Below are positions 18,385 through 32,000 of a stretch of 32,000 bases of DNA, in pieces (the stretch's first letter is position 1; each line of letters starts with the position of its first letter). The position numbers were made by a program, and so were the translations under genes. The stretch is from an uncultured archaeon (GTDB taxonomy: Archaea; Asgardarchaeota; Thorarchaeia; Thorarchaeales; Thorarchaeaceae). The notes below the pieces were generated by a model. That model did no database searches. It saw only the letters and a list, made by a program, of their open reading frames with translations, and was not told where the DNA came from. Location of the stretch: contig CAYHAA010000001.1 of assembly GCA_964354495.1 (NCBI GenBank), positions 278,075 through 310,074 of the forward strand, given 5' to 3'.

Positions 18385-19185
18385 TTGGAGGAACTGGTTG
18401 TGTCTGAACAAGAAATACTCTATGAGGTATCCGATGGTATTGCTACTATCACCATCAATAGACCAGCGAAATACAATGCACTATGCACCTCAGTCGTGAC
18501 TACTCTGAGGCAGCTCTTCAAGAAAGCTGAGGGAGCTAGTTCGGTTAGGGTTATTCTTCTTACAGGTGCTGGTGAGAAAGCGTTTGCAGCGGGGGCCGAT
18601 ATTACTGAGTTTCAGGGAAAAGACTCCAAGACGGTTCGACCTCTTACAGAGAATGGACAAGAGCTATGCAAATACATAGAATCGATGGGCAAACCTGTCA
18701 TAGCTGTTGTGAACGGATTCGCGTTAGGCGGAGGTTGCGAGATTGCCATGTCATGTGACATCCGATACGCGTCCTCCAATGCGAAATTCGGCCAACCCGA
18801 AATAAATCTCGGAATCATTCCGGGTTTTGGTGGTACTGCGCGGCTCGCGCGACTTGTCGGTCTTGGTATGGCTAAGGAGCTAATATACGGCGGAGAACAG
18901 ATTAAGTGTGAAGAGGCTCTCAGAATTGGCCTTGTCAACAAGATGTTCGAGTCTGTCGAAGAACTTCGGAATGGCGCGATGCAACTTGCTCGAAAGCTCG
19001 CGGCGAAGCCGGGTGTCGCGTTGGCACTCTCAAAGCAGTCCCTCAATAATTCTTGGGAGATGCCTCTCAACAAGAACTTGAAATTCGAAGTCGATGTGTT
19101 CTGCAAGACCTTTGATACAGAAGACAAGGATGAGGGCGTCAGCGCGTTCTTAGGCAAGCGAGAAGCCAAGTTCAAGCACAAGTAG
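18385..19185 (+). CDS. Enoyl-CoA hydratase (crotonase), second copy
   Basis: TINRPAKYNA, FAAGADI, GKPVIAVVNGFALGGGCEIA, GQPEINLGIIPGFGG. Confidence 0.95.
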   Translation: MEELVVSEQEILYEVSDGIATITINRPAKYNALCTSVVTTLRQLFKKAEGASSVRVILLTGAGEKAFAAGADITEFQGKDSKTVRPLTENGQELCKYIESMGKPVIAVVNGFALGGGCEIAMSCDIRYASSNAKFGQPEINLGIIPGFGGTARLARLVGLGMAKELIYGGEQIKCEEALRIGLVNKMFESVEELRNGAMQLARKLAAKPGVALALSKQSLNNSWEMPLNKNLKFEVDVFCKTFDTEDKDEGVSAFLGKREAKFKHK

Positions 19186-19188
19186 ATG

Positions 19189-19228
19189 GGTGCACGGGTT
19201 TGGAATCCCGTCACCTTCTCTCTATTTT
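19189..19228 (+). terminator. Hairpin plus U-tract terminator between convergent genes
   Basis: GGTG-C-ACGGG / CCCGT-CACC stem followed by TTCTCTCTATTTT. Confidence 0.5.
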
Positions 19229-20146
19229 GAGGTGTCCATCTTCCTCGATTATTTTCCCCTTTTTCTTGAGCAGCTCAACATGCTTCTCAAGCATGAATAC
19301 CTCGAAAGCACGATAGAGCTCCATCGGGATTCGCCGATAGATGGTTGGTTTGAGAGCCATCTTCTCAATAGTATCGATACCACTCGCAATATTGTCGAGC
19401 ACACGCCTCTCTCTCTCGCCGAAGACTCTCGTGAACGCCTGCAGTCTCATTTTGAGATCCTCAGTGACGGGGTCAATGAGGTGGCTGCTAATTCCTGTCC
19501 TTGGATTCATCTCAATCACCCGCTCCACGGACTTCTTGAAATCCGCAATATCACTCACCTTATTTCCATACCATGGCCCAAAGCTTGTCAAATCGATGTC
19601 GACCAGGAAAATTGTATCATAGCCATTGATGCCAAAACAGGTATGGTCCAGTGTATGACCCGGCAGATGAATCGGAATAATCTCAGTTTCACCACAGCTG
19701 ATGGCTTTTCTATCTTCGAAGGTGCCAGTGACATTATACTCCGCCAAGACATGTGCAAAACTCGTGTTGATGAACACTCTCCAGACGTCGTATTGACTGC
19801 GCCCCTCCATTCCGTAGTAGTCGACCATCCCTTTGAAGGTTCGAACCCCCTTCTCGGCGAGTGGATGACATATCATTTCACAATCTGCAGCTCTTTGAAT
19901 GATTGCGGCATAGCCCTTATGGTCGATATGGAAGTGTGTCAGGATAATCCTCTCAATATCGGAGAGTTCATGGCCGAGGTCTCTCAAAGTCCGTGTTACG
20001 TTTTCCATGCTTGTGCCGGCATCCACCAGCGTCAGAATCTCGTCATCAATCAGCAGTGTATTCGCCTCAGGAAAACCAGCTCCATTCTTACCTCTCACAA
20101 GGTGTACCTTTGGCAAGACCTCGATGTGTGTTGGATACTCGGACAT
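19211..20146 (-). CDS. Metallo-beta-lactamase fold hydrolase
   Basis: LVDAG, THFHIDH (HxHxDH), PGHTLDH; probable C-terminal wHTH. Confidence 0.9.
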   Translation of the reverse strand: MSEYPTHIEVLPKVHLVRGKNGAGFPEANTLLIDDEILTLVDAGTSMENVTRTLRDLGHELSDIERIILTHFHIDHKGYAAIIQRAADCEMICHPLAEKGVRTFKGMVDYYGMEGRSQYDVWRVFINTSFAHVLAEYNVTGTFEDRKAISCGETEIIPIHLPGHTLDHTCFGINGYDTIFLVDIDLTSFGPWYGNKVSDIADFKKSVERVIEMNPRTGISSHLIDPVTEDLKMRLQAFTRVFGERERRVLDNIASGIDTIEKMALKPTIYRRIPMELYRAFEVFMLEKHVELLKKKGKIIEEDGHLKIERR

Positions 20147-20237
20147 TGCAGTTCAGTCTCTTCTTGTCCTAAATAACTCTCTCTGTCGCACAATCTATAT
20201 TGCACGGTGTCGTTCTACTATATTCAATCATATGTAG

Positions 20238-21704
20238 GTGAGTTCGATGAGTCAACGCTTGTTTGCAGTATTTGATATAGGTACCACAGGAACACGATCG
20301 GTAATAATTGATGAAGAGGGCCGTGAACTCAGCAAGGCGTACGAGGAATATCCCAGCAAGCCCGCCGAGCTCAAGACGCATGAGCAGCTTGCAGACACGT
20401 TTTGGCGGACTTCTGCAAACACCATGCAGCGTGCTCTATCAGCATGCAAGTACGGTGCTGATGCGATAGTCGGAGTTGTCGTGACCACGACAAGGGACAG
20501 TATCACGCCGATTGACTCCAAGGGCAATCCATTAGCTCCCACAATCACTTGGGTTGATAATCGGTCCAGCAAGAAGAGCAAGGAGCTCGCCGATATAATT
20601 GGCCCGCGAAAAAGCGTCAACAAGATGATGTGGTTCATTGAGAACAGACCAGACTTCTTCAAGAAGGTCCATAAATGGGCACCATTGGACGCGCTCATAA
20701 ACAGTCGATTATGCGGTGTTCTGGCCAGCTCTCCTGCGGATGCGCGCTTTGGACCAATTGATCATGAAACACTCCAGTGGTCTGAAGAAATATGTGAGGC
20801 CACTGGCATTCCTATTGACAAGCTCGTACGAATCGTGAACTCCGGGTCGACGATTGGAGAACTATCATCTGCAGCTGCCAAGACCACAGGTCTGAGAAAG
20901 GGCACCCCTGTTATAATGGGAAGCGGTGATCAACAATGCTCAGCCCTAGGAATGGGTGTCATTGAGCCAGGAGTTGTGAAGGCAACAACGGGCACAGGAA
21001 CGTTCGTAATCACCCACCTTGATGAGTTCATGGAGAATCCCTTTGTCATGTTCTGCCATCCCTCAGCGATGCCGGGCAAATGGATCTTGGAGGGTGTTAT
21101 ACCAGGGACAGGACTCACCTACAAATGGTACAGAGATCAGTATTGTGAACCTGAGATGGCGTTGGCGGTTCAAACAGAGATGGATGCCTACCAAATAATG
21201 GAGACCTCGGCGGCCTCAGTCCCTGCAGGCAGTGATGGTCTTGTAGTGTTTCCATTCATGGCATACGGTCTTGGAATCATCTATCATCTAAGTTTCCGTC
21301 ATACTAAGGCTCACGTAGCACGAGCAATACTCGAGGCGAATGGCTACGGAATCAAGATGTACATCGAGATGATGGAGGGTATGTTGGATGCCAAGTTTGA
21401 CGAACTCCGCATTGATGGCGGCGGAGCCAACTCACCTCTGTGGCGACAGATTCAGGCTGACTGCTCTGAGAAACCTGTGGTCCTTCCGCGGATCAGAGAT
21501 TCAACAGTCAACGGTGCTGCAATGCTTGGCACAGTTGGGACAGGTATCTACGGCTCTTACAAAGAGGCTGTTGAGAATATGTTCCACATCGAAGAACGCC
21601 GGGAACCCATTCCTGAGAATGTCATCATCTACAGGAAACAGTACCAGACTTTCAACAAACTCCTGAATTCGGAATTGGGCAATATACTGGAATCAATCTC
21701 GTAG
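20238..21704 (+). CDS. FGGY-family carbohydrate kinase (glycerol kinase/xylulokinase-like)
   Basis: FDIGTTGTRS, GSGDQQCSALG, TGTGTF, DGGGANSPLWRQIQAD. Start GTG 20238 or ATG 20247. Confidence 0.93.
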   Translation: MSSMSQRLFAVFDIGTTGTRSVIIDEEGRELSKAYEEYPSKPAELKTHEQLADTFWRTSANTMQRALSACKYGADAIVGVVVTTTRDSITPIDSKGNPLAPTITWVDNRSSKKSKELADIIGPRKSVNKMMWFIENRPDFFKKVHKWAPLDALINSRLCGVLASSPADARFGPIDHETLQWSEEICEATGIPIDKLVRIVNSGSTIGELSSAAAKTTGLRKGTPVIMGSGDQQCSALGMGVIEPGVVKATTGTGTFVITHLDEFMENPFVMFCHPSAMPGKWILEGVIPGTGLTYKWYRDQYCEPEMALAVQTEMDAYQIMETSAASVPAGSDGLVVFPFMAYGLGIIYHLSFRHTKAHVARAILEANGYGIKMYIEMMEGMLDAKFDELRIDGGGANSPLWRQIQADCSEKPVVLPRIRDSTVNGAAMLGTVGTGIYGSYKEAVENMFHIEERREPIPENVIIYRKQYQTFNKLLNSELGNILESIS

Positions 21705-21768
21705 AAGAAACGAAACGTCCGAGGCAGGTACTGTGTAGATCCATGCGGATACTGGGCCGAAGAGGCGC

Positions 21769-22020
21769 TTACTCCTTGTCTTCGTCCCGATTGTCTTCCC
21801 AGATTCTGCCGAAGAACACTAAGGCCAGAACAAGCTCGGAACCTTTTGCATTCTGAGCCAGATACTCGATCGATTCACTAATAGTGTTCTCGTGCTCCCA
21901 TGCATGTCGGGCAAGGTCCACAAGATCATCGAATCTCTTGTCAGGAATTTCGAGTGCTTGGGTAATCTTCTCGGTATCGTGACCTTTTACATTGAGAGTA
22001 CCAAGATTATATTCTGGCAT
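21769..22020 (-). CDS. Small hypothetical protein
   Basis: 83-aa ORF from ATG 22020 (MPEYNLG...), acidic, occupying the kinase-glpA gap. Confidence 0.65.
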   Translation of the reverse strand: MPEYNLGTLNVKGHDTEKITQALEIPDKRFDDLVDLARHAWEHENTISESIEYLAQNAKGSELVLALVFFGRIWEDNRDEDKE

Positions 22021-22205
22021 CTTCACGTACACCTTAGCAGCCAGCATGGGCCCGGTCCTTTTAATCTATCTGCGGCTGGAATTCTGCAAATCTGCACTAA
22101 TGAGTGCAATCGAAACCCTTGTATTGCGCGTAGAAGACTCCCCCAGTGAGGCAGAGATTCTATCTGTGAAAGCTCCATGACCGAAATCTTCGGGGATTCC
22201 ATTCT

Positions 22206-23870
22206 ATGACCGATACCCAGTTCGATGTTGTCGTGATTGGCGGAGGAAGTACAGGAACAGCTGTGGCCCGTGATTGCGCCATGAGAGGCCTACGGATTCT
22301 CTTGTTGGAACGTGATGATATTGCATCGGCCACCGTAGGTACGTGCGCAGGAATGATCTCATCTGGTCTAAAGTACAGTGACGAACCTGATATCATGGCT
22401 ATGTGCTCAAAGGAAGTTGTGCATTTCAGTCATATCGCTCGCCATATCATCTCCAAGAATCCGATCATTGCACCGCTCTTGGACCTAAGTGATGCCGCGA
22501 GTGATAGTTCATATGTTGACTCATACTCGGCACATGCTGAGGAACGTGCAGTACCTTCGATGCTGTTTTTGACACCTGAGGCTTCACGTGAAATTGAGCC
22601 GATGCTTCATCCTGATGTCATCGCCAGTGTCTACTATGAAGAATTCTTCATAGATCCCTTCCGTCTGTGCATGCTTCAGGCTCTAGATGCTGCCAAGCAT
22701 GGCGCAAAGATAAAGACCTACTGCGAGGTCATTGATTTTGCCATCAATCACAATAACAAGCTCGAGGGTGTCGTTTTCTACAATGGAGTAACAGGCCGTA
22801 CTGAGAAGGTCAGGACCGAATTCGTCATCAATGCTACTGGCCCTTGGGCACACAAGGTGGCTAGCCTTGCGGGTGAGAAACTAGATATTCGCCTCAACAA
22901 GGGCGCTCATGTCATACTAGACAGAAGAGTGGTCAATGTTGGGGTCACTGTAAAGGCTATTGATGGAAGATGGGTCTATCTTTTTCCCCACGAGAATACT
23001 ACGCTTCTCGGGACAACCGCCTTGGACACATGGGAGGATCCGGATTCACTCGTTGCTTCCTTTGATGAAATCGAATATCTTCTTCAGAGCATCGAGACTG
23101 TGCTACCATCTATTCGTGAGGCCCGTATTATTAGAACAATGGCAGGCGTCAGACCCCTTGTTCCTGAGTGGAAGAAACCTGAGGGAAAGGTGACTCGCGG
23201 CTACCAAGTCATAGATCATGGTGCGAATGATGGTACAAAGGGACTGATTAGCTTCACAGGAGGAAAGCTGGTCATGTGCAGGCACATGGCTGAAACTGTC
23301 ACAGACCTTGTCTGCAAGAAGCTTGGCAAGACTGCGACCTGCACGACCCATGAACAACCTCTTCCGGGAAATGAGGCCGACATCGATATTGTCGGACTCT
23401 CAAGAGAATATGGCATTGCCCTTCATGCCTTGGAACGTATGCGCGCGCGTCGGGGAGCCGATATGGTGAAAGTTTTGGAGCTCACAAGACAGCATCCCGA
23501 GTGGAAGACCACAGTATGCACATGCGAGCCAGTCATTGAGGCAGAGGTACGCTACACAATACGAGAGGAATTTCCGCAGACACTGAACGACCTCCGACGC
23601 AGACTTCGTCTGGGAACTGGTCCATGCCAAGGGACATCTTGCACCTACAAAGCTGCAGCAATCCTCTGTGAAGAGCTCAATCTGGGTGGCGATGACTTTC
23701 TTGTTGATATTCTAGATTTCAGAGCAGAACGATGGAAAGGAATTCGGCAGTCTCTTCGGGGCGAGCAACTGGCTCAAGATGAACTCACGCAGGGAATGTA
23801 TGCATGCGTGGGAAACCTTGACCAGTCTGATGTAGACTATGATATCAAACCCTGGGAGGAGGGATGCTGA
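22206..23870 (+). CDS. glpA: Anaerobic glycerol-3-phosphate dehydrogenase subunit A (FAD, C-terminal BFD-like 2Fe-2S)
   Basis: IGGGSTG, GMISSGLKY, NATGPW, GVRPL, GGKL, CTCE...GTGPCQGTSC. Confidence 0.9.
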   Translation: MTDTQFDVVVIGGGSTGTAVARDCAMRGLRILLLERDDIASATVGTCAGMISSGLKYSDEPDIMAMCSKEVVHFSHIARHIISKNPIIAPLLDLSDAASDSSYVDSYSAHAEERAVPSMLFLTPEASREIEPMLHPDVIASVYYEEFFIDPFRLCMLQALDAAKHGAKIKTYCEVIDFAINHNNKLEGVVFYNGVTGRTEKVRTEFVINATGPWAHKVASLAGEKLDIRLNKGAHVILDRRVVNVGVTVKAIDGRWVYLFPHENTTLLGTTALDTWEDPDSLVASFDEIEYLLQSIETVLPSIREARIIRTMAGVRPLVPEWKKPEGKVTRGYQVIDHGANDGTKGLISFTGGKLVMCRHMAETVTDLVCKKLGKTATCTTHEQPLPGNEADIDIVGLSREYGIALHALERMRARRGADMVKVLELTRQHPEWKTTVCTCEPVIEAEVRYTIREEFPQTLNDLRRRLRLGTGPCQGTSCTYKAAAILCEELNLGGDDFLVDILDFRAERWKGIRQSLRGEQLAQDELTQGMYACVGNLDQSDVDYDIKPWEEGC

Positions 23871-25244
23871 GTGAATCTCAAGGCTGATCTTCTTGTCATT
23901 GGTGGTGGCATGGCAGGGCTTGTTGCAGGCACAGTAGCTTCTGAATCTGGTCTGACTACTCTTCTTCTTAGAAAGGGCCAGAGCGCCACCGCATACTCCT
24001 CAGGTGCGATAGACGTCATTGGGTATGTTCCAGATGTCCTAGAGCCCTTTTCAAGCCCCGAAGAAGGATTGCTTGCGATTGCGGCTCTATATCCTCTCCA
24101 CCCGTATGCAGTTGTTGGCTATGGTGATGATGCTACATCTGAAGAAACGGGCGCAGCAATTGTTGGGAGAGTGCGGGGAGCTATTACGTGGCTGAAGGAG
24201 AATCTTGGGGGTACAATTGCTCCCGTAGTGGGCGAGTTTGATACCAACATGCATCTCATCACAATTCTTGGTACTGCAAAGCCCGCTTGTCTTGCACAGA
24301 CGACGATATGCCCCGCTGACCTTGAGAATCGAGAAGATAGTGTTCTTCTCTTTGCGGGTATCACCGGTTGTTCTGAATTCAGTCCATCTGCAGCTGCGAA
24401 GACTTACATTGAGGACCGAATCGCTCTCGGTGGACCTCCTCACAAGGTTGGTCATTGCATGCTTCAGGTCTCCCCCTTTGGCAAGTCCTTCAACATCTCA
24501 TCTATTGAGATTGCTCGGCATCTTGATCGTGAAGGTTCGATAGAGGCCCTTGCAGAACAACTCAAGGTACAAGTGAAACGAATTGGTGCGACACATGTTG
24601 CCTTGCCGCCTGTGCTGGGTATTCGCAATGCAATTGCGAACAAGTCGAAGTTGGAGAAGCTGATAGGAGCCACTGCCTTCGAATTACTAGGTTTTCCGCC
24701 ATCTGTCCCCGGTCTACGACTTCAACGCGCGCTTGAAGGCGTTTTTGTCAAAGCTGGAGGCAAGATGCTGGTAGGTCATGAAGCGATTTCCCACGTTAGA
24801 ACAAAGCAACGGGTCACTGCGGTCATCGCACGCAGCCCACTTCGTGAAATAAGGATAGATGCAAAGGCCTTCATCCTAGCAACTGGGAAGTACATCGGAG
24901 GTGGGATTGCTGGTAATGAGAAGGGACTCCGCGAGACCGTGTTTGACATCATGACTGTCACAGACGACTATCACTCGTCACGAGATATCGTACCCTCTCG
25001 TTCAACCAATCGCCTGTCAATCAGTCCCACTGGACAGCCAATTCAAGCCTGCGGATTGGGTATCGACTCACAATTCAGACCAGTTCGCGAAGACGGACTA
25101 GAATGGGCAGACAACCTCTTCGCAGCGGGTGCTGTTCTTGCTGGCTACAATTATTCTGTGGAGAAGAGTGGGCTGGGTGTTGCCTTAACGAGTGGATATA
25201 GCGCAGCCAAGAACGCTATTGATTTCCTGAGGGAGGTGAAATAG
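23871..25244 (+). CDS. glpB: Anaerobic glycerol-3-phosphate dehydrogenase subunit B
   Basis: VIGGGMAG, SSGAIDV, PPSVPGLRL, LATGKYIGGG, NLFAAGAVL, SGLGVALTSG. Confidence 0.9.
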   Translation: MNLKADLLVIGGGMAGLVAGTVASESGLTTLLLRKGQSATAYSSGAIDVIGYVPDVLEPFSSPEEGLLAIAALYPLHPYAVVGYGDDATSEETGAAIVGRVRGAITWLKENLGGTIAPVVGEFDTNMHLITILGTAKPACLAQTTICPADLENREDSVLLFAGITGCSEFSPSAAAKTYIEDRIALGGPPHKVGHCMLQVSPFGKSFNISSIEIARHLDREGSIEALAEQLKVQVKRIGATHVALPPVLGIRNAIANKSKLEKLIGATAFELLGFPPSVPGLRLQRALEGVFVKAGGKMLVGHEAISHVRTKQRVTAVIARSPLREIRIDAKAFILATGKYIGGGIAGNEKGLRETVFDIMTVTDDYHSSRDIVPSRSTNRLSISPTGQPIQACGLGIDSQFRPVREDGLEWADNLFAAGAVLAGYNYSVEKSGLGVALTSGYSAAKNAIDFLREVK

Positions 25245-25245
25245 G

Positions 25246-26481
25246 TTGGACGAGGATGAGGCCTATGAATATGTGAAGAGCACACTGAGGAAGGAAAAGA
25301 TAACTCCCTATCGTCCTGATGAGATAGAGAAGGTGAAATCTGTTAGTTCCTGCATCAACTGCGGACTATGCACGAATCATTGTCCAGTGGTTGCAGCTGT
25401 GGGCGTTGACCGTTTCAGTGGTCCCCGAAGTATTGCTGTGGAACTATCTCGTTCACCTCCTGAATACTGGTCCGCGGCAGATAAGGTGTACTTATGCACA
25501 GAATGTGGAACATGTCGCGAGGTCTGTCCCAAGAATGTAGACATTCCTGAAATCGTCAACATGATCCGCGCAAGAATCTTCGAGCATCGACCAGACCTCG
25601 TGCCAAAAGCCTTCATGTCGGTCAGAGAAATCATTACAGAACATGGTCTTGCGTTCGAGCCCTGGGCGGATAGAGAAGAGAAGGAAGGAAGTCGAGATAT
25701 GCGACTTGAGCATCTGGGACTCCCTTATGTGCCTGACAGAACAAAGGAGAATGCAGATGTACTGTTCTTTCCTGGTTGTCAGGCTGAAGAACGGGCACAG
25801 GAAGTTCGTGAAGCCGCGAAGGTGATTCTTGACTTCTTTGATGTCGACTTCACCCTTCTTAACGAATTCTCGTGCTGCAGCCTTCCATCGCATTTGATGG
25901 GCGACGAAGTGACAGCGAGGGCATTAGCTGAGAAACTGAAGCAGAAGATTAAGAAACTAGGTGTGAAGAAGGTTGTGACAACATGTGCAGGCTGTACATC
26001 AAACTTGGCCAGTCTTGCTGAACGAGATGGCTGGGGGATTCCAGTATATCACATGCTTGAGTTTCTCGCTGAGGAAATTGGATACAAGAGAGTATCCAAG
26101 GCTCTGAGAAAGACTCAGACTCCTGATGATGCTCATATTTCGGTTCATGATCCCTGCCACCTCATTCGCCATACATCACGACAGATAATGGATTATGCAT
26201 CGGAAATCCTAGCTGTCATTCCTGGGGTGAAGGTCACCACTTCCGAGGCACATGACTCGTGCTGCGGTGGTGGTGGTATGGTATCTTATCACTCTGATGA
26301 CGTGGCTAATGCCGTAGTGCAGGAGAATCTCATCGCCTTGGCGGCTACTGGGGCGGAACGTCTGGTGACACCATGTCCTCTCTGCACCGCACAATTAGAG
26401 AACAATCTGTTCAAGAGCGGAAGTCCCATTGAAGTGGAGGATTTCACGGTCTTTATAGCTCGGAGACTTCCCAAGGAGTGA
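25246..26481 (+). CDS. glpC: Anaerobic G3P dehydrogenase subunit C-like Fe-S protein (2x 4Fe-4S plus CCG domains)
   Basis: CINCGLCTNHC, CTECGTCREVC, CC, CAGC, HDPCH, CCGGGG, CPLC. Confidence 0.85.
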   Translation: MDEDEAYEYVKSTLRKEKITPYRPDEIEKVKSVSSCINCGLCTNHCPVVAAVGVDRFSGPRSIAVELSRSPPEYWSAADKVYLCTECGTCREVCPKNVDIPEIVNMIRARIFEHRPDLVPKAFMSVREIITEHGLAFEPWADREEKEGSRDMRLEHLGLPYVPDRTKENADVLFFPGCQAEERAQEVREAAKVILDFFDVDFTLLNEFSCCSLPSHLMGDEVTARALAEKLKQKIKKLGVKKVVTTCAGCTSNLASLAERDGWGIPVYHMLEFLAEEIGYKRVSKALRKTQTPDDAHISVHDPCHLIRHTSRQIMDYASEILAVIPGVKVTTSEAHDSCCGGGGMVSYHSDDVANAVVQENLIALAATGAERLVTPCPLCTAQLENNLFKSGSPIEVEDFTVFIARRLPKE

Positions 26482-27917
26482 TTAGCACCGTGCTCGATTC
26501 AAAGACGATAAAGAATCTCTACAAACGCATGGTTTCCATAGTTGGGCCAGAGAACGTACATCAACAGGAGACCGACAGAGTGCTCAATGCTCATGATGCA
26601 TGGCCCCTCAGCGAGGCCAAGTTGCGAGCTGGAGAGATGCTTCCTCTCGCAGATCTCTTGGTCTTCCCCTCATGTCGAGAAGAGGTAGCGGCCGTACTTG
26701 TGGCTGCGAACGAGCTGGAAATCCCTGTCACGCCTGTTGGGGGCGGTGCTGGGACATGCGGTGGGACATTGCCCATCTATGGAGGAATACAGCTTGATCT
26801 AAAGCGGATGTGCAAGATTTGCGAGATTGACGACCAATCGATGACTATCAGAGCTCAGGCTGGAGTAGTAGGAATCGATCTAGAGGAATACGCAAATCGA
26901 CACGGCTATACTCTGGGTCACACACCTACCTCCCTGAGAGCATCGAATCTTGGCGGATTCATTTCAACCCGCTCCGGGGGTTCTATGTCCTCTCTCTATG
27001 GGAAAATCGAGGACCTGACCTTGGGTCTCGAGGTCATACTACCGGATGGGTCAATCTCAAAATGCAAGGCTGTCCCAAGGCAGTCTGTGGGTCCCGATCT
27101 CCGCCAGCTCTTCATAGGTTCAGAGGGAACCCTAGGAGTGATCACGGAGGCAACATTGCGGCTGTTCCCACTTCCTGAGGAACGTCGTTTCAGGAGTTTC
27201 ACTTTTCCTGATGTTCACAGTGGTCTAGAAGCAATTCGCAACATCTTCAGAATTGGAATTACTCCATCCATTGCCAGGCTGTATGATCCCGAAGACGCCG
27301 CTATGAGCTTCTCAACGCATTTTGAATTCGAAGAAGGGCATTGCATGTTGCTCCTCGGGTTCGATGGCGACAAAGCCCGCGTTGATCTTGATGAAAGGAA
27401 GTCCGTTGATATCTGTGTCAGACACGGTGGAACTGACTTAGGTGAAGGTCCTTCCAAGAGATGGTGGGAGCATAGGTATGACATGTACTATCCAACCCGT
27501 CTAACGACATCGGGTTATGCCATTGGTGACACCATTGACATAGTGGCAACCTATGACAAGCTCGAGAAGGTCTACCAGTCGATGAAGGCAGCAATGGAGG
27601 CAGATGACGCAATAGTCATGTCCCACTTCTCCCACATGTACCAGAACGGTGGTAGCATCTACATGATCTTCTTCACCTCCCAGCCAAGTGCCGAGACCGC
27701 CTGGACGACATACAGGAAGATCTGGGATGATGGTGTTGCAGCTTGTCTTAGAGAGGGTGGAACGATGAGTCACCAGCACGGCGTCGGTCTCACTCGAAGT
27801 ACTTACACGGAAGATGAGTTGGGGTCCTCATTCATTATACTGAAGAAAATCAAGGATGTTCTCGATCCTAAGGGAATAATGAATCCCGGTAAGCTTGGAC
27901 TGGGGGTGCGAAAATGA
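26478..27917 (+). CDS. FAD-binding oxidoreductase of the VAO/PCMH family, alkyldihydroxyacetonephosphate synthase (AGPS)-like
   Basis: LGHTPTS...GGFISTRSGG...YGKIEDL, GPDLRQLFIGSEGTLGVIT, SHFSHMY...SIYMIF, SHQHGVG, DPKGIMNPGKL. Confidence 0.85.
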   Translation: MISTVLDSKTIKNLYKRMVSIVGPENVHQQETDRVLNAHDAWPLSEAKLRAGEMLPLADLLVFPSCREEVAAVLVAANELEIPVTPVGGGAGTCGGTLPIYGGIQLDLKRMCKICEIDDQSMTIRAQAGVVGIDLEEYANRHGYTLGHTPTSLRASNLGGFISTRSGGSMSSLYGKIEDLTLGLEVILPDGSISKCKAVPRQSVGPDLRQLFIGSEGTLGVITEATLRLFPLPEERRFRSFTFPDVHSGLEAIRNIFRIGITPSIARLYDPEDAAMSFSTHFEFEEGHCMLLLGFDGDKARVDLDERKSVDICVRHGGTDLGEGPSKRWWEHRYDMYYPTRLTTSGYAIGDTIDIVATYDKLEKVYQSMKAAMEADDAIVMSHFSHMYQNGGSIYMIFFTSQPSAETAWTTYRKIWDDGVAACLREGGTMSHQHGVGLTRSTYTEDELGSSFIILKKIKDVLDPKGIMNPGKLGLGVRK

Positions 27918-29050
27918 CATTTGATGAAAGTCTCGCAGAGAAGATTAGGCTCTGTGCGGCATGCCCCAAGATGTGCCGCCATGTTTGCCCGACTTTCTTC
28001 GCTTGGCGTTCAGACTCCCCGACACCGCACGGCAGGGCCCTTTTGATACACCAAGAACTAATCGGCACTCGTAAGATAGATGATCGTGGCATTGAAGTTC
28101 TCTATCAGTGTCTCGAGTGCAGTCACTGCCTAACATGGTGTAAACCTGAGGTTGATATCGCATCTATTGTTGAGCAGAAGCGCAAGGTGCTGGTGGCTGA
28201 AGGTCGACGCCCCAAAGGTCTGACCGAGGTGGCTCATGCCATTAGGAAATACCATAATCCGTTCTCTGAGCCCCATGAGTCACGTAACAACTGGCTCTCC
28301 GTCAACAGCAAGAAGAAGGGGAAAACAATATTCTACTTCGTCGGTTGTACATCATCATATAGAGAGAAGGAGATCGCAGCTGACACTGTAGACCTTTTGG
28401 AATCTCTGGGTTACAGAGTTCTCGTCGCAGGTGGCTTGCAGGGTGAGTGGTGCTGCGGGTCTCCGCTCTTCCGAACTGGTGATGTTGAGCTTGGTATGGA
28501 ACTTGCACAACACAATACTGAGATGCTCAATAAGATGGATGCACAAGAGATAATCGTGACATGTCCCGGCTGTTTCCGAGCTCTATCAAAAGACTACCCT
28601 GCCCAGGGACTAGTGATCAACAAACCTGTTAGGCATATCAGCCAGCTACTAGACGAGATGAAAGAGAGTCTTCCAGTCTTTGATTTTGAGGGGACAATCA
28701 CCTATCATGACCCATGCCATCTTGGGAGACACTCGAAGATCTACGACGAACCAAGGAATGTCATCAATCGAGTTTCGGGCTCCAAGCTGGTCGAGATGGA
28801 ACGAACCCGTGAGAATGCCATGTGTTGTGGCAACGGTGCTGGACTAAGAACTCTCTTTCCAGAACATGCCAAGAAAATCGGCTCCGAACGGGTTCGCCAA
28901 GCGCAGTCTACTGGTGCAACTATCTTAGTCACATCTTGCCCGTTCTGCAAGAACATGCTTGGCTCGCAGACTGGAAATGGTCTGACAGTATTGGATCTAC
29001 CTGAGATTGTCCTGATGGCCAAGAGAGGCCGCAAACTTAAGACACATTAG
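27914..29050 (+). CDS. Fe-S oxidoreductase (GlpC/GlcF/HdrD-like, CCG domains)
   Basis: CAACPKMCRHVC, CLECSHCLTWC, CCGSP, CPGC, HDPCHLGR, CCGNG, CPFC. ATGA overlap with the upstream gene. Confidence 0.9.
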   Translation: MTFDESLAEKIRLCAACPKMCRHVCPTFFAWRSDSPTPHGRALLIHQELIGTRKIDDRGIEVLYQCLECSHCLTWCKPEVDIASIVEQKRKVLVAEGRRPKGLTEVAHAIRKYHNPFSEPHESRNNWLSVNSKKKGKTIFYFVGCTSSYREKEIAADTVDLLESLGYRVLVAGGLQGEWCCGSPLFRTGDVELGMELAQHNTEMLNKMDAQEIIVTCPGCFRALSKDYPAQGLVINKPVRHISQLLDEMKESLPVFDFEGTITYHDPCHLGRHSKIYDEPRNVINRVSGSKLVEMERTRENAMCCGNGAGLRTLFPEHAKKIGSERVRQAQSTGATILVTSCPFCKNMLGSQTGNGLTVLDLPEIVLMAKRGRKLKTH

Positions 29051-29079
29051 GATTTACCTGTCAGTGAGCCGGAACGACC

Positions 29080-30198
29080 ATGGATACCGAGGAAATACTT
29101 CAGCTAAAGGTCCGATTACTCACCGAGGGAGCCAGACTTCCAGAGGGTGAGTGGAAGGGACGACGAGGCGGCGCAGGTCCCGTCGGAAGTCGGTATTTTC
29201 TCCTTCCAAATGGTCGCACCTGTGGTATCCCAATCAGAACAGGTAGGCAGGCCAATCTCTTCGGGTCAGCTAGTCTTGAGCCCACTGACGACCCGAGGGT
29301 GTGGCTGTACGATGATTCAATTCCATTGATTGTAGTCCCTCGGCCGAAGTTCTATGATTTGAGGACCAGTGAAGGAATAGCCTACAGTAGTATTGCCCTT
29401 CTTCATGGAGAACGGACACTTGCGACAACAGTCTACCAGTCCTGTAAGTACTGGTCAAATGGTTCCCAATGCAAGTTTTGTACAATACCTTTCTCGTATC
29501 TCTCTGGTGACACAGTGCTGGAGAAGGCTCCTGAGGATATTGTGGAGGTAATCATTGCGGCGCAGAAGGAAGAGCTGATTGATGACGTACTCCTCACGAC
29601 AGGAACTCCTGATGCTCCTGACATGGGCTGTAAGAGGTTGATAGATACAGTCACGGCCATACGGCAAGCAAGTGACATCCCAATTGCTGTTCAGTTTGAA
29701 CCTCCTGTTAGGCACGCCATGATTCGGGAAGTAGCCAAAGCAGGAGCAGTTGCTGTGGGAATACATATTGAGAGTGCAGATGACTCAGTCCGTCAGGAGA
29801 TGTGTCCTGGCAAACATCAGTTCGGTTCTCTCGATTTCTATAAGAAGAGCTGGCGATACGCTCTGAAGTACTTTGAACGGGGTCATGTCAGTACATTTGT
29901 TCTGCACGGTCTTGGTGAAGATGTCCAAGAGACCTTGAAACTTGTCGAGGAGATCTCCCGACTTGGTGTGATGTCTGTGGTTGCTCCTGTGCGACCGTCG
30001 CGAGGGAGCAAATTGGCTGACTACATCCCTCCATATGTTGGAGACCTTGCTGGCTCGGTTGACTTCTACAAGAACACCGGCAGGATTCTCTATACTCATA
30101 GTCTGAATCCAAAACAGACTGCCGCTGGGTGCCACAAGTGCGGCGGATGTACGCCTATCCAAGAAGCATATGACTGGGCAGCAGCGCAGAAGTTATAG
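29080..30198 (+). CDS. Radical SAM protein, MSMEG_0568/NitD-like
   Basis: LATTVYQSCKYWSNGSQCKFC (CX8CX2C) and C-terminal AGCHKCGGC; family resemblance recalled, not searched. Confidence 0.8.
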   Translation: MDTEEILQLKVRLLTEGARLPEGEWKGRRGGAGPVGSRYFLLPNGRTCGIPIRTGRQANLFGSASLEPTDDPRVWLYDDSIPLIVVPRPKFYDLRTSEGIAYSSIALLHGERTLATTVYQSCKYWSNGSQCKFCTIPFSYLSGDTVLEKAPEDIVEVIIAAQKEELIDDVLLTTGTPDAPDMGCKRLIDTVTAIRQASDIPIAVQFEPPVRHAMIREVAKAGAVAVGIHIESADDSVRQEMCPGKHQFGSLDFYKKSWRYALKYFERGHVSTFVLHGLGEDVQETLKLVEEISRLGVMSVVAPVRPSRGSKLADYIPPYVGDLAGSVDFYKNTGRILYTHSLNPKQTAAGCHKCGGCTPIQEAYDWAAAQKL

Positions 30199-30200
30199 CG

Positions 30201-30719
30201 GTGAACAACTCTCTAGGATTGATGAACACATCTGACTTGCCTGCTGAGGAAATCCGTGTGGTTGAGTTCGCAGAGGCGGACGCAGAAGAAATCTCAGAAT
30301 TGTTCAGACAAGTATGGCCACTTGCTCTAGAGTATCCTAAGCACTGGCGAAAGAAACGTATGTACGCGCCGGCGAGGATTATTCGAGAGATGAGATCAGG
30401 CTATCATTACTTTGGTAGTAGACTTGAGGGAAAGATCGTGGGAGTCTACAAGGCCATCATTACTGAGAAGGGACTATATGGAGCGCATCAGACTGTACGT
30501 CTGGAGTGTAGGACTTCCGGTTTAGCTTCTGCAATGTATATTCAATTTGCAGAGTACGCCAGAGAACACGGATGCCAAATGAATTACTGCAACATCCTCG
30601 TTGGTCAGGAAGTCGGAGAACGTCTAATGAGGAAATTCGGATTTACACCTTGGGGCAAGCCCTATGAACAGGCTAAGGGCATGTTGGTACAGATGTACGA
30701 ACGTCTTCTGGTTCCTTGA
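30201..30719 (+). CDS. GNAT family N-acetyltransferase
   Basis: Motif A-like TVRLECRTSGLASAMY and LMRKFGF. Confidence 0.8.
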   Translation: MNNSLGLMNTSDLPAEEIRVVEFAEADAEEISELFRQVWPLALEYPKHWRKKRMYAPARIIREMRSGYHYFGSRLEGKIVGVYKAIITEKGLYGAHQTVRLECRTSGLASAMYIQFAEYAREHGCQMNYCNILVGQEVGERLMRKFGFTPWGKPYEQAKGMLVQMYERLLVP

Positions 30720-30792
30720 TTTTCTTCAGTTCCGAAAGACCTTTAGATAGCTCAGGAACCCACACTATGTCAAACTACCTCGAGGAATCAAT

Positions 30793-32000
30793 ATGGAAGT
30801 CTTCCCGATTCTCGTAGATGGCGAAGAAGTGGACACAGGAAAATACACGGTCTTTCCAGACATGGAGAAGGTGACTCAGGATCCGGGTCTTGGCATTGCC
30901 CTGCAACTACAGAACGCCTCATCACTCTCACGCTTCGTCTTCTCTAAGATTCCCGGAATGATATCCAGTAGTACTCCTGAGATGAGATTCCTCAGAGACT
31001 ATCGAAAATACCACGGTGTTCCAAAGTACTCTAAAGATGAGCTCGACGACGTAGTCTATACAAAGGTTTCACTGTCTCGTGAACAGGATATCGAGAGAGC
31101 GATAACTGCGGGCACACGAGATCATATGAAACTGTACAACCCCTTCAGAATCCCTGGCATGGGCGTGACTTTGGACGAGAGGGCGGACGCGCTGCACAAC
31201 GCAAGTCTAGAGATCAAGAAGAATTGGGATGTTATTCGGGAGATATCCATCAAGGAAGGAATGCCTGTTGGTACCCTGAAATGGGCTTGGAACCTTGGGG
31301 CGTGGAGTGACTACCGAAAATCCGTGGATGAGTGGGGAAAACTTCTTGATGTGATTGAAGAACCAGGGCTTGATGGAGGAAGGTCATATCGCTTTCGCGA
31401 GCCGTACGGCGTGTCTGCATTGTTCACGCCATATAATGCTCCTATCGCTTTGGGTATCTTCAGTATCACCTCGTCCGTTCTCGCAGGCAATTCGACGATT
31501 CTGAAACCGCCGAACAAGGTCCCTCTGAGTACGATTATCTTTGCTCGCATTTTCATGAAGAGTTTCCTTGAGAGCGGAATGCCATCATCAATACTGCAAG
31601 TCCTTACTGGCGGAGGAAAAGAGCTGATGGAGCGATTCGTTTCCGACCCCAGAGTCGGGGCACTCGTCTGGTACGGTGACAGTGATGTTGGTTTGAAGCT
31701 GTGGTCCAATGCAGTTGGAAGACGGACTCAGATGGCTCCTGAGTTAGCAGGCAGCGATCCATGTCTTGTCTGGGGAAAAGATGTAGATCTTCGAAAGGCT
31801 GCTGAGGTCATTACAAAGGGGCGATTCCTCGGTAGTGGACAGGCATGTATGGCTATCAAACGCTTGATTGTGCAAGACTCATTGTATAGCGAGCTGGTAT
31901 CGCTACTAGTCGAAGAAGCCAAGAAGCTCAAGGTTGGTCTTCCATCCGATCCAACGGTATCACTGTCTCCCGTTGGCATCACAGCGCTTTACCTCCTTAT
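30793..32000 (+). CDS. Aldehyde dehydrogenase family protein (3' truncated by the window end)
   Basis: Not in the ORF track. Open from ATG 30793 (GAGGA RBS) to the end. REPYGV...TPYNAP, LAGNSTILKP, PELAGSDP (catalytic Glu), SGQACMA (catalytic Cys). Confidence 0.93.
   Translation, partial: MEVFPILVDGEEVDTGKYTVFPDMEKVTQDPGLGIALQLQNASSLSRFVFSKIPGMISSSTPEMRFLRDYRKYHGVPKYSKDELDDVVYTKVSLSREQDIERAITAGTRDHMKLYNPFRIPGMGVTLDERADALHNASLEIKKNWDVIREISIKEGMPVGTLKWAWNLGAWSDYRKSVDEWGKLLDVIEEPGLDGGRSYRFREPYGVSALFTPYNAPIALGIFSITSSVLAGNSTILKPPNKVPLSTIIFARIFMKSFLESGMPSSILQVLTGGGKELMERFVSDPRVGALVWYGDSDVGLKLWSNAVGRRTQMAPELAGSDPCLVWGKDVDLRKAAEVITKGRFLGSGQACMAIKRLIVQDSLYSELVSLLVEEAKKLKVGLPSDPTVSLSPVGITALYLL

Follow-up and report, generated by a model that had tools for sequence, protein, structure and literature searches.

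A putative polyol-phosphate catabolic module with a short AGPS-like flavoprotein in a Thorarchaeota genome

We analyzed a stretch of 32,000 nucleotides (the window) from the 3.3-Mb, 97.7%-complete genome of a Thorarchaeota (Asgard) archaeon (G000:C1:278075-310074). From position 20238 to 32000, its plus strand carries the genes for an FGGY kinase, GlpA, GlpB, a GlpC-like protein, a VAO-family flavoprotein, an iron-sulfur (Fe-S) protein with CCG domains, a radical S-adenosylmethionine (SAM) protein, a GNAT protein, and an aldehyde dehydrogenase (ALDH), in this order (Table 1). The original prediction regarded them as an O2-independent system for the catabolism of ether lipids, in which the flavoprotein acts like alkyldihydroxyacetonephosphate synthase (AGPS). 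The flavoprotein is indeed AGPS-like. However, it is a short form accompanied by a redox partner, and the operon probably serves the catabolism of a small, soluble polyol or ketol that is phosphorylated and related to glycerol phosphate.

Table 1 Genes in the 20238–32000 region of the window, with families assigned with Pfam and NCBIfam profiles
Gene product	Position	Strand	Profile matches
FGGY-family kinase, specificity unassigned, apparently not an orthodox glycerol kinase	20238..21704	+	Pfam FGGY_N and FGGY_C
GlpA-type flavoprotein subunit of an anaerobic glycerol-3-phosphate-dehydrogenase-type complex	22206..23870	+	Pfam DAO, DAO_C, and Fer2_BFD (BFD-like [2Fe-2S])
GlpB subunit	23871..25244	+	TIGR03378, above cut-off
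GlpC-like Fe-S subunit (2x[4Fe-4S] ferredoxin domain and two CCG domains)	25246..26481	+	Pfam Fer4_8 and CCG x2
AGPS-like (YgcU-type, short) VAO-family flavoprotein, proposed catalytic subunit of a two-subunit dehydrogenase	26478..27917	+	
Fe-S electron-transfer subunit (ferredoxin-like N-terminal domain and two CCG domains; TfrB/HdrD/GlcF-like)	27914..29050	+	Pfam CCG x2 and Fer4_8
Radical SAM protein (MSMEG_0568-like)	29080..30198	+	TIGR04043, below cut-off
GNAT protein	30201..30719	+	
Aldehyde dehydrogenase, truncated by the window end	30793..32000	+	Pfam Aldedh

The five genes from glpA to the Fe-S gene are tightly coupled, as had been claimed. The gap is 0 nt between glpA and glpB and 1 nt between glpB and glpC, and 4-nt overlaps are found between glpC and the flavoprotein gene and between the flavoprotein gene and the Fe-S gene. 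The domain architecture and gene order of GlpABC match those of the known complex. The gene preceding them encodes an FGGY kinase as predicted, judging from the Pfam domains, but it does not appear to belong to the same transcription unit. Since the 501-nt spacer between the kinase gene and glpA contains a 92-aa open reading frame (ORF) on the opposite strand (21769-22047, minus), the kinase gene is probably on a separate transcript from glpA here.

In phmmer searches against the PDB, the flavoprotein matches AGPS best (219 bits for 2uuu from Dictyostelium and 212 bits for 4bby from guinea pig), and the D-lactate and glycolate dehydrogenase types score 147 bits or less. Its identity is 25–28% with AGPS and 32% with Escherichia coli YgcU over the whole length. 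The top fold matches of the AlphaFold2 model (pLDDT 88.7, pTM 0.88) in Foldseek are the AGPS structures 5ae3 and 4bby (TMq of 0.88 and E of 8e-42 for 5ae3), followed by mouse LDHD (TMq of 0.83). All the motifs quoted in the original prediction were found (GHTPTS at residue 147, GGFISTR at 159, YGKIEDL at 174, SIYMIF at 393, and HQHGVG at 432), and they separate the AGPS-like clade from GlcD-like enzymes.

The positions of several residues should be noted. Tyr395 aligns with the catalytic Tyr residue of AGPS (Tyr578 in guinea pig, Cavia, and Tyr508 in Dictyostelium), and Arg267 aligns with Arg419 (Cavia) and Arg352 (Dictyostelium). In an alignment of 135 relatives, including 109 AGPS-like sequences and a GlcD-type outgroup, Tyr395 is found in all 109 AGPS-like sequences and Arg267 in 108 of the 109, while His148, Trp329, and the third-position His of the His432-x-His434 loop are found in 98–100% of them. 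The outgroup has Glu at the position of Arg267, His at that of Tyr395, and Gly-Glu-His at that of His-x-His. This signature, together with the best sequence and fold matches in the PDB, assigns the flavoprotein as AGPS-like, not GlcD-like. The retention of AGPS-type residues that are missing in the GlcD outgroup argues for a dihydroxyacetone phosphate (DHAP)-like substrate, and a simple 2-hydroxy acid is unlikely as a substrate because the GlcD/D-lactate dehydrogenase signature is replaced with the AGPS set.

The resemblance to AGPS is not complete. In the HHH loop of AGPS (His615–617), His616 and His617 are active-site residues, and the Arg and Tyr residues are catalytic (PMC3509576). The equivalent of His616 is Gln in the Thorarchaeota flavoprotein. 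The loop is His432-Gln433-His434 in sequences of the genome's own family (the Thor family) and in one other Asgard family, and HHH in other Asgard and bacterial relatives. The extra N-terminal domain of AGPS, consisting of a β-sheet and a gating helix, controls the channel for the fatty chain (PMC3509576). Only 58 residues, predicted as three helices and no strand in the AlphaFold2 model, lie ahead of the FAD domain in the flavoprotein, compared with approximately 135–205 residues in AGPS. The alignment begins at residue 176 of Cavia AGPS and at around residue 127 of Dictyostelium AGPS. The flavoprotein lacks most of the N-terminal domain specific to AGPS, as well as a cap insertion of approximately 40 residues (Cavia 426–465).

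Matches to the flavoprotein with one in-frame stop codon each were observed in five other Asgard genomes. The codon is TAA in G170:C10:41557-42951, G229:C2:20407-21801, and G219:C20:2963-4366, and TGA in G209:C12:11003-12400 and G237:C285:14688-16091. These stops could have arisen by misassembly, mark a pseudogene, or be recoded. The flavoprotein gene is intact in a genome that belongs to the genus of G170 (L123).

The Fe-S protein gives TfrB as its best NCBIfam match (209 bits), below the cut-off of 385 bits, and its Cys clusters are invariant in 16 Asgard orthologues. The predicted complex of the flavoprotein with this protein scored 0.91, whereas the best of three controls scored 0.00. A score of 0.91 is attained by 58 of 80 solved complexes and by 2 of 110 mismatched pairs, though in the present case it could partly reflect likeness to solved flavoprotein/Fe-S complexes. 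At least 90% of contacts are common to the three runs, and the partner has a pLDDT of at least 90. In the predicted complex, the ferredoxin-like domain of the Fe-S protein (residues 9–78, with the invariant Cys motifs) docks on the FAD domain. The predicted interface on the flavoprotein side is formed by N-terminal helices 28–54 and FAD-domain loops including residues 152–155 of the GHTPTS motif.

Fusions were sought among the most similar proteins in a library of 1.8 billion proteins. In Bacillota, P0142 and P0274 carry the flavoprotein and the Fe-S protein in one chain (FAD_binding_4, FAD-oxidase_C, Fer4_8, and CCG). P0121, P0123, and P0124 are metagenomic proteins of 900–990 aa in which the AGPS-like domain is joined to a second FAD_binding_4 domain. 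In Myxococcota, this double-FAD fusion gene is followed by a CCG Fe-S gene, a layout like that of GlcD-GlcE-GlcF. One fusion gene is preceded by a GntR regulator gene and followed by a GlpA-like gene. Metagenomic fusions with a PfkB sugar kinase (P0203) and with a Cof-type HAD sugar phosphatase (P0208) were also found.

The gene overlap, the near-universal adjacency, the natural fusions, and the complex prediction together support, though they do not prove, that the Fe-S protein would bind the flavoprotein as its partner. The exchange reaction of AGPS is redox-neutral and requires only oxidized FAD (PMC3509576). An AGPS is thus expected to have no electron partner, but here the Fe-S gene overlaps the flavoprotein gene, is conserved, and is fused to it in Bacillota. 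The conservation of an electron-transfer subunit speaks for net redox chemistry. At least six other gene pairs of a GlcD-like flavoprotein and a CCG Fe-S protein occur in this genome, an unusually large set, and this pairing is its standard dehydrogenase design. Pair sites lie at G000:C1:576140-578777, C1:587641-590153, C1:438147-439538, C2:96518-99066, C5:126364-128962, C5:77562-79535, C4:45311-47961, and C16:65153-66904.

Phylogenetic trees were constructed with FastTree (135 sequences) and with IQ-TREE under LG+C20 (71 sequences). An AGPS-like superclade is present in both trees with 98–99% support, and it contains the flavoprotein. A grouping with 2-hydroxyacid dehydrogenases, one of the results that the original prediction had regarded as fatal to itself, is not observed. 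The phylogeny that it had proposed was made with YgcU and GlcD, and the flavoprotein groups with the short YgcU-type forms, not with GlcD; the eukaryotic and myxobacterial AGPSs that it had also named are represented by a proxy. The proxy is a "long" clade within the superclade (clade L; 100% support), which has a median N-terminal extension of 63 residues and scores highest against the AGPS structures 2uuu and 4bby. L117 (322 and 282 bits, respectively), L030 from Mycobacterium (300 and 238 bits), and L120 (240 and 176 bits) belong to this clade. The scores of YgcU, a short form, are 135 and 142 bits.

In both trees, the Thorarchaeota flavoprotein is located outside clade L, among the short forms. 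Its nearest sequences are those of other Asgard archaea, a small bacterial group, and the Myxococcota forms fused to a second FAD-binding domain. This subclade (S2) has a median N-terminal extension of 0 aa. E. coli YgcU and Loki-type Asgard sequences form another short subclade (S1). The placement away from the clade nearest AGPS is suggestive, not decisive. The trees also prompt the reading, itself improbable, that the redox-neutral AGPS arose from ketol-phosphate dehydrogenases linked to Fe-S proteins or electron-transfer flavoprotein (ETF), with a lipid-gating domain acquired at the N terminus and the redox partner lost.

Gene context divides the long from the short forms sharply. Genes within 3 kb of the flavoprotein gene were counted at 39 loci of clade L, 25 of S1, and 21 of S2. 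A DagK/YegS-type lipid kinase gene is found at 24 of the 39 clade L loci and at none of the 25 S1 or 21 S2 loci (0/46 for the pooled short clades), while an FGGY kinase gene is found at 1/39, 15/25, and 7/21 loci, respectively. The numbers for a CCG Fe-S neighbor are 0/39, 8/25, and 14/21 (22/46 for the pooled short clades). A GlpA/GlpD-like gene is a neighbor at 26/39, 16/25, and 4/21 loci, and the GlpA gene in S2 is part of a complete GlpABC set. In clade L of Mycobacterium, Nocardia, and Streptomyces, the layout is a divergent GlpD-like gene, a TetR regulator gene, and a DagK/YegS-type lipid kinase gene directly downstream. The long-form set was seen in L030, L032–L037, L040–L049, and L054–L058 from Actinobacteria and in L143 from Myxococcota. 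Among the 151 Myxococcota genomes sampled, two to three of the seven long forms whose neighbors were checked have a DagK-like gene nearby, and no gene for fatty acyl-CoA reductase (FAR) or GNPAT is found among the neighbors of the seven.

Six bacterial loci were annotated, five from the group nearest the Thor sequences (L014, L015, L017, L018, and L031) and one from the YgcU clade S1 (L028). Their neighbors include KduI/IolB isomerases, class II aldolases, a fucose-isomerase-like gene, FGGY kinases, MFS_2 and ABC sugar transporters, RpiR and LacI regulators, a short-chain dehydrogenase/reductase (SDR), and a fused ETF. The context of these relatives is sugar catabolism, not glycerol genes. Many enzymes of the GlpA/FngA family also occur in polyol contexts, not glycerol contexts (Schut et al. 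2026, PMC13689815). The statement in the original prediction that neighborhoods with a kinase, a G3P (glycerol 3-phosphate)-dehydrogenase-like protein, and an AGPS-like protein are widespread in prokaryotes is borne out by both bacterial and Asgard loci, since G3P-dehydrogenase-type genes (GlpABC or GlpA/GlpD-like) adjoin the flavoprotein gene in Asgard archaea and many bacteria. No functional characterization was found in the literature on YgcU, Rv2251, and bacterial AGPS-like enzymes.

The flavoprotein is found in 115 of the 201 Asgard genomes sampled. Within its own family, this genome excluded, 38 of 43 genomes carry it. Synteny was examined at 15 loci from 11 other Asgard families, together with two Thor-family loci (this genome and CP070761). 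The Fe-S gene adjoins the flavoprotein gene at 14 of the 15 other-family loci and is 4 kb away at the fifteenth, and a homologous FGGY kinase gene is located within approximately 6 kb of the flavoprotein gene at 11 of the 15. The order of kinase, GlpA, GlpB, GlpC, and flavoprotein, then the Fe-S protein, is seen at four loci of three families with 45–50% flavoprotein identity, though the Fe-S gene is 4 kb downstream in L125. In a fifth locus, L137, GlpABC is a few kb away. The recurrence of the gene order across families at this level of identity argues against a chance arrangement of the block. In other Asgard genomes, the kinase gene directly adjoins glpA or overlaps it. Many genomes have the AGPS-like/Fe-S pair without adjoining GlpABC. 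The Asgard core is therefore the FGGY kinase, the flavoprotein, and the Fe-S protein, often with GlpABC. No recurrent extra neighbor was found at Loki-type loci, where one alpha/beta hydrolase gene was seen in one locus.

The synteny check suggested in the original prediction therefore upholds the core but not the flanking genes. In CP070761, the genes for the radical SAM protein, the GNAT protein, ALDH, and β-oxidation are all syntenic with the operon, whereas none of them is found near the flavoprotein gene at the 15 other-family loci. The pair of the radical SAM and GNAT genes is also absent from 80 bacterial loci and is probably outside the conserved module. The radical SAM protein scores 277.3 bits against TIGR04043 (cut-off 303.7 bits). 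GNAT is its sole companion in the window, the other Nit1C genes (nitrilase and so on) being missing there. ALDH scores far below the NCBIfam cut-offs (the best is lactaldehyde dehydrogenase, 139 bits against 650 bits). It is a neighbor in the Thor family only, and its link to the module is unproven. The inclusion of ALDH and β-oxidation in the predicted pathway is accordingly disfavored, the adjacency being restricted to the two Thor-family loci.

The kinase scores 236 bits against LsrK (cut-off 528 bits), 209 bits against XylB (380 bits), and 154 bits against GlpK TIGR01311 (590 bits) in NCBIfam. Its best PDB match is the AI-2 kinase LsrK (5ya0, 164 bits), and glycerol kinases score 119 bits or less. 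Compared with E. coli GlpK, Arg83, Trp103, and Asp245 are kept, Glu84 is replaced with Asp, and the loops with Tyr135 and GAPYWDP are deleted. Judging from its sequence, the kinase would be an FGGY type for soluble sugars, not a glycerol kinase. A paralogous kinase (G000:C4:187206-188696; 356 bits versus 152 bits for the kinase in the window) keeps all the GlpK contacts. This most GlpK-like kinase gene is convergent with a LarA-family (lactate-racemase-like) gene, with no glp gene nearby (G000:C4:185885-188735; L146:5385-8236). As for the complex, GlpB scores 218.9 bits against TIGR03378, above the equivalog cut-off of 174.15 bits. GlpA, a single-copy protein in the genome, scores 429.2 bits against TIGR03377, below the cut-off of 552.8 bits. 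The GlpC-like protein is below both relevant cut-offs (174 bits for TfrB, its best match, against 385 bits; 127 bits for GlpC NF008369 against 278 bits).

The route that we consider most likely is as follows. The FGGY kinase would phosphorylate the free compound, and the GlpABC-type complex would oxidize its G3P-like end to a DHAP-like ketol phosphate, as its family membership suggests. The short AGPS-like flavoprotein, as a heterodimer with its own CCG Fe-S subunit, would then perform a further net two-electron step on the DHAP-like substrate. Its putative active-site kit is that of AGPS, namely a Tyr base, the conserved Arg, and the His-x-His loop, and catalysis probably begins as in AGPS, with deprotonation beside the ketone and reduction or alkylation of FAD. 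No acyl/alkyl exchange would follow; instead, the reduced flavin would be re-oxidized via two [4Fe-4S] and CCG clusters of the partner to an acceptor. The order proposed in the original prediction, a kinase, GlpABC, and a step on the DHAP-type product, fits the conserved synteny.

Similar logic is found in the erythritol pathway of Brucella, in which an FGGY kinase (EryA) and a GlpD-like polyol-phosphate dehydrogenase (EryB) give a DHAP-like ketol phosphate. This pathway is not known to have an AGPS-like enzyme, and isomerases of the EryC/H/I type are apparently missing from the Thorarchaeota operon.

A relative close in form is E. coli YgcU, encoded in a cluster without assigned function (ygcN-O-P-Q-R-S-U-W, yqcE, and ygcE). 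YgcU is the same short form with the AGPS signature and has an FGGY kinase neighbor, YgcE, which is 25% identical to the kinase in the window. The Thorarchaeota flavoprotein has all the features of a YgcU-type short form: it lacks the N-terminal extension, carries the AGPS signature, and has genes for a sugar kinase and a redox partner as neighbors. However, YgcU has HHH where the Thorarchaeota flavoprotein has HQH. In the E. coli cluster, ETF (YgcQR) and a FixCX-like pair take the place of the CCG Fe-S subunit as electron acceptors, and the cluster contains an SDR, MFS transporters, and a GlpP-like antiterminator but no GlpABC. GlcDEF and similar 2-hydroxyacid dehydrogenases share the design in which a VAO flavoprotein passes electrons to a subunit with 2x[4Fe-4S] and two CCG domains, though GlcD has His and Gly-Glu-His where the Thorarchaeota catalytic subunit has the AGPS set. 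GlpABC of E. coli and Haloferax has the same subunit order and domain sets. Contrarily to that system, the Thorarchaeota GlpA and GlpC are below the cut-offs, the kinase is not GlpK, and the operon runs on into the flavoprotein/Fe-S enzyme. AGPS itself (also called ADPS; EC 2.5.1.26; 2uuu and 4bby) shares the VAO-type two-domain fold, Tyr, Arg, and the first and third His residues of HHH. It differs in having the full N-terminal domain, the cap insertion, and His616 and in needing no Fe-S partner, and the Thorarchaeota locus has a sugar-type kinase neighbor and no FAR or GNPAT gene.

Several points weigh against a polyol-phosphate module. Since the catalytic residues of AGPS are intact, exchange or elimination chemistry could still take place. 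The substrate class is inferred from gene context for the whole short clade, E. coli YgcU included. The GlpA score below the cut-off suggests that the substrate of the complex may not be G3P itself, and the kinase gene is parted from glpA by the opposite-strand ORF in this genome. The direction (oxidation or reduction) and the final acceptor are likewise inferred; the genome has one MenA-family match, and MqnC was not found. The trees contain neither eukaryotic AGPS nor that of Myxococcus xanthus (MXAN_1676), the bit scores against PDB structures serving as a proxy. In the AU test, a tree in which the Thor sequences are forced to group with clade L is not rejected (p = 0.084), and the group tested was named after the tree had been seen.

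Plain glycerol catabolism is unlikely, though it deserves consideration first among the alternatives. The kinase would be a divergent glycerol kinase, GlpABC would give DHAP, and the AGPS-like/Fe-S pair would be an accessory enzyme acting on DHAP or on the other enantiomer, sn-glycerol-1-phosphate (G1P) from archaeal lipids, and would supply the same pool. Such a role is consistent with the GlpB score above the equivalog cut-off, with the very broad association of G3P-dehydrogenase-type and AGPS-like genes, and with the GlpP-like antiterminator in the E. coli cluster. Thorarchaeota genomes have been reported to lack bona fide GlpK but to have GlpA/D (PMC6737245). However, the kinase in the window lacks Glu84 and the Tyr135 loop, and the more GlpK-like paralogue is encoded elsewhere. 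The annotated bacterial relatives lie beside sugar isomerases, aldolases, and sugar transporters, and there is no evident reason for bacteria to possess a G1P dehydrogenase.

A redox-balancing pair, in which GlpABC oxidizes its substrate and the AGPS-like/Fe-S enzyme is a reductase serving as an electron sink, appears rather improbable. The CCG subunits would share a thiol/disulfide or another carrier, as in thiol:fumarate reductase. TfrB is the best NCBIfam match of both CCG proteins, but the two scores are far below the cut-off. The two modules are translationally coupled in this operon, yet the AGPS-like/Fe-S pair often occurs without adjacent GlpABC. Thorarchaeota are anaerobes without a clear quinone pathway, which would suit such a pair, though no candidate carrier or oxidant was identified. 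In this genome, MqnC was not found, and the one MenA-family prenyltransferase match (G000:C13:73201-74043) scores 123.6 bits against a cut-off of 102 bits. The match adjoins a gene for a 646-aa GlcD-like protein at C13:70177-71379.

It is also doubtful that the AGPS-type site serves to cleave or oxidize a 1-O-substituted DHAP in an O2-independent reaction coupled to the Fe-S protein, the substrate being generated, for example, from a glycerol ether or glycoside by phosphorylation and oxidation by GlpABC. If true, this cleavage would be a new anaerobic breakage of the C–O bond on glycerol backbones.

The ether-lipid catabolism of the original prediction is chemically coherent and not formally refuted, but we give it little credence. 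In that pathway, an alkylglycerol is phosphorylated by the kinase and oxidized to alkyl-DHAP by GlpABC, the ether is cleaved by the reverse of the AGPS reaction, and the resulting fatty alcohol or aldehyde is passed to ALDH and β-oxidation. AGPS is the best sequence and fold match with Arg267 and Tyr395 conserved, GlpABC would supply the DHAP-type product, and ALDH and thiolase, enoyl-CoA hydratase, and 3-hydroxyacyl-CoA dehydrogenase genes are nearby in this genome and CP070761. The lipid and ether part is nevertheless disfavored by most of what is described above. The enzyme groups with the short YgcU-type forms outside the long clade, most of the gating domain is missing, and Gln takes the place of the middle His in the HHH loop. 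In spite of the redox-neutral exchange of AGPS, there is a dedicated Fe-S partner, which is conserved and, in Bacillota, joined to the flavoprotein in one chain. FGGY kinases use soluble sugars or polyols, the kinase here is of a non-GlpK sugar type, and no lipid kinase is encoded at the locus. The bacterial relatives are located among sugar-catabolic genes, and the adjacency of ALDH and β-oxidation genes is seen at none of the 15 other-family Asgard loci. A lipid version may exist elsewhere. Clade L of Actinobacteria, and of some Myxococcota, with a DagK-type kinase and a GlpD-like protein, is a better candidate than the Thorarchaeota operon for a pathway of a lipid kinase, a dehydrogenase, and an AGPS-type step.

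Less likely still, and very improbable, is the forward synthesis of ether lipids on a G3P/DHAP backbone by a bona fide AGPS, an alternative in the original prediction for which the conserved catalytic Tyr and Arg and the JGI automatic annotation of close Thorarchaeota homologues as "alkyldihydroxyacetonephosphate synthase" speak, but a search of the 97.7%-complete genome yielded no PF01553 (GNPAT/PlsC-type) acyltransferase, no FAR is convincing (the NAD_binding_4, PF07993, matches are weak, at 49 bits or less, in epimerase-sized ORFs of approximately 330 aa), the gene is embedded with those for the kinase, GlpABC, and the Fe-S partner, and eukaryotic AGPS is placed in or beside myxobacteria in a 2026 study (PMC13012113), the preprint version of which found no evidence of the plasmalogen pathway in Archaea (10.1101/2025.10.10.681575).

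The label on the Thorarchaeota homologues is thus misleading for the short clade. Taken literally, it would credit Asgard archaea with making or breaking ether lipids of the eukaryotic type, a matter relevant to the lipid divide and eukaryogenesis. The present analysis instead delimits a large orphan family, including E. coli YgcU, that is found in over half of the sampled Asgard genomes. The family keeps the unusual covalent-flavin residues of AGPS but is wired to electron carriers. Identification of a substrate would give a function to a module conserved in gut bacteria, sediment anaerobes, and Asgard archaea, and it could also show how a non-redox flavoenzyme originated from a dehydrogenase.

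Some minor features of the locus are described here. A plus-strand ORF in the spacer between the kinase gene and glpA (21892-22149), overlapping the 92-aa ORF, has no Pfam match. The 216-nt spacer of the Thor genome CP070761 contains nothing equivalent to the 92-aa ORF, and the two spacers gave no convincing alignment. An Rfam scan of 19000-32000 gave no match at E up to 0.1. The gaps downstream of the operon are 29 nt between the Fe-S and radical SAM genes, 2 nt between the radical SAM and GNAT genes, and 73 nt between the GNAT and ALDH genes. The upstream genes encode an ADP-forming acetyl-CoA synthetase, an SCP2-like protein, a 3-hydroxyacyl-CoA dehydrogenase, two enoyl-CoA hydratases, a thiolase with its OB-fold partner, and a protein with a metallo-β-lactamase fold.

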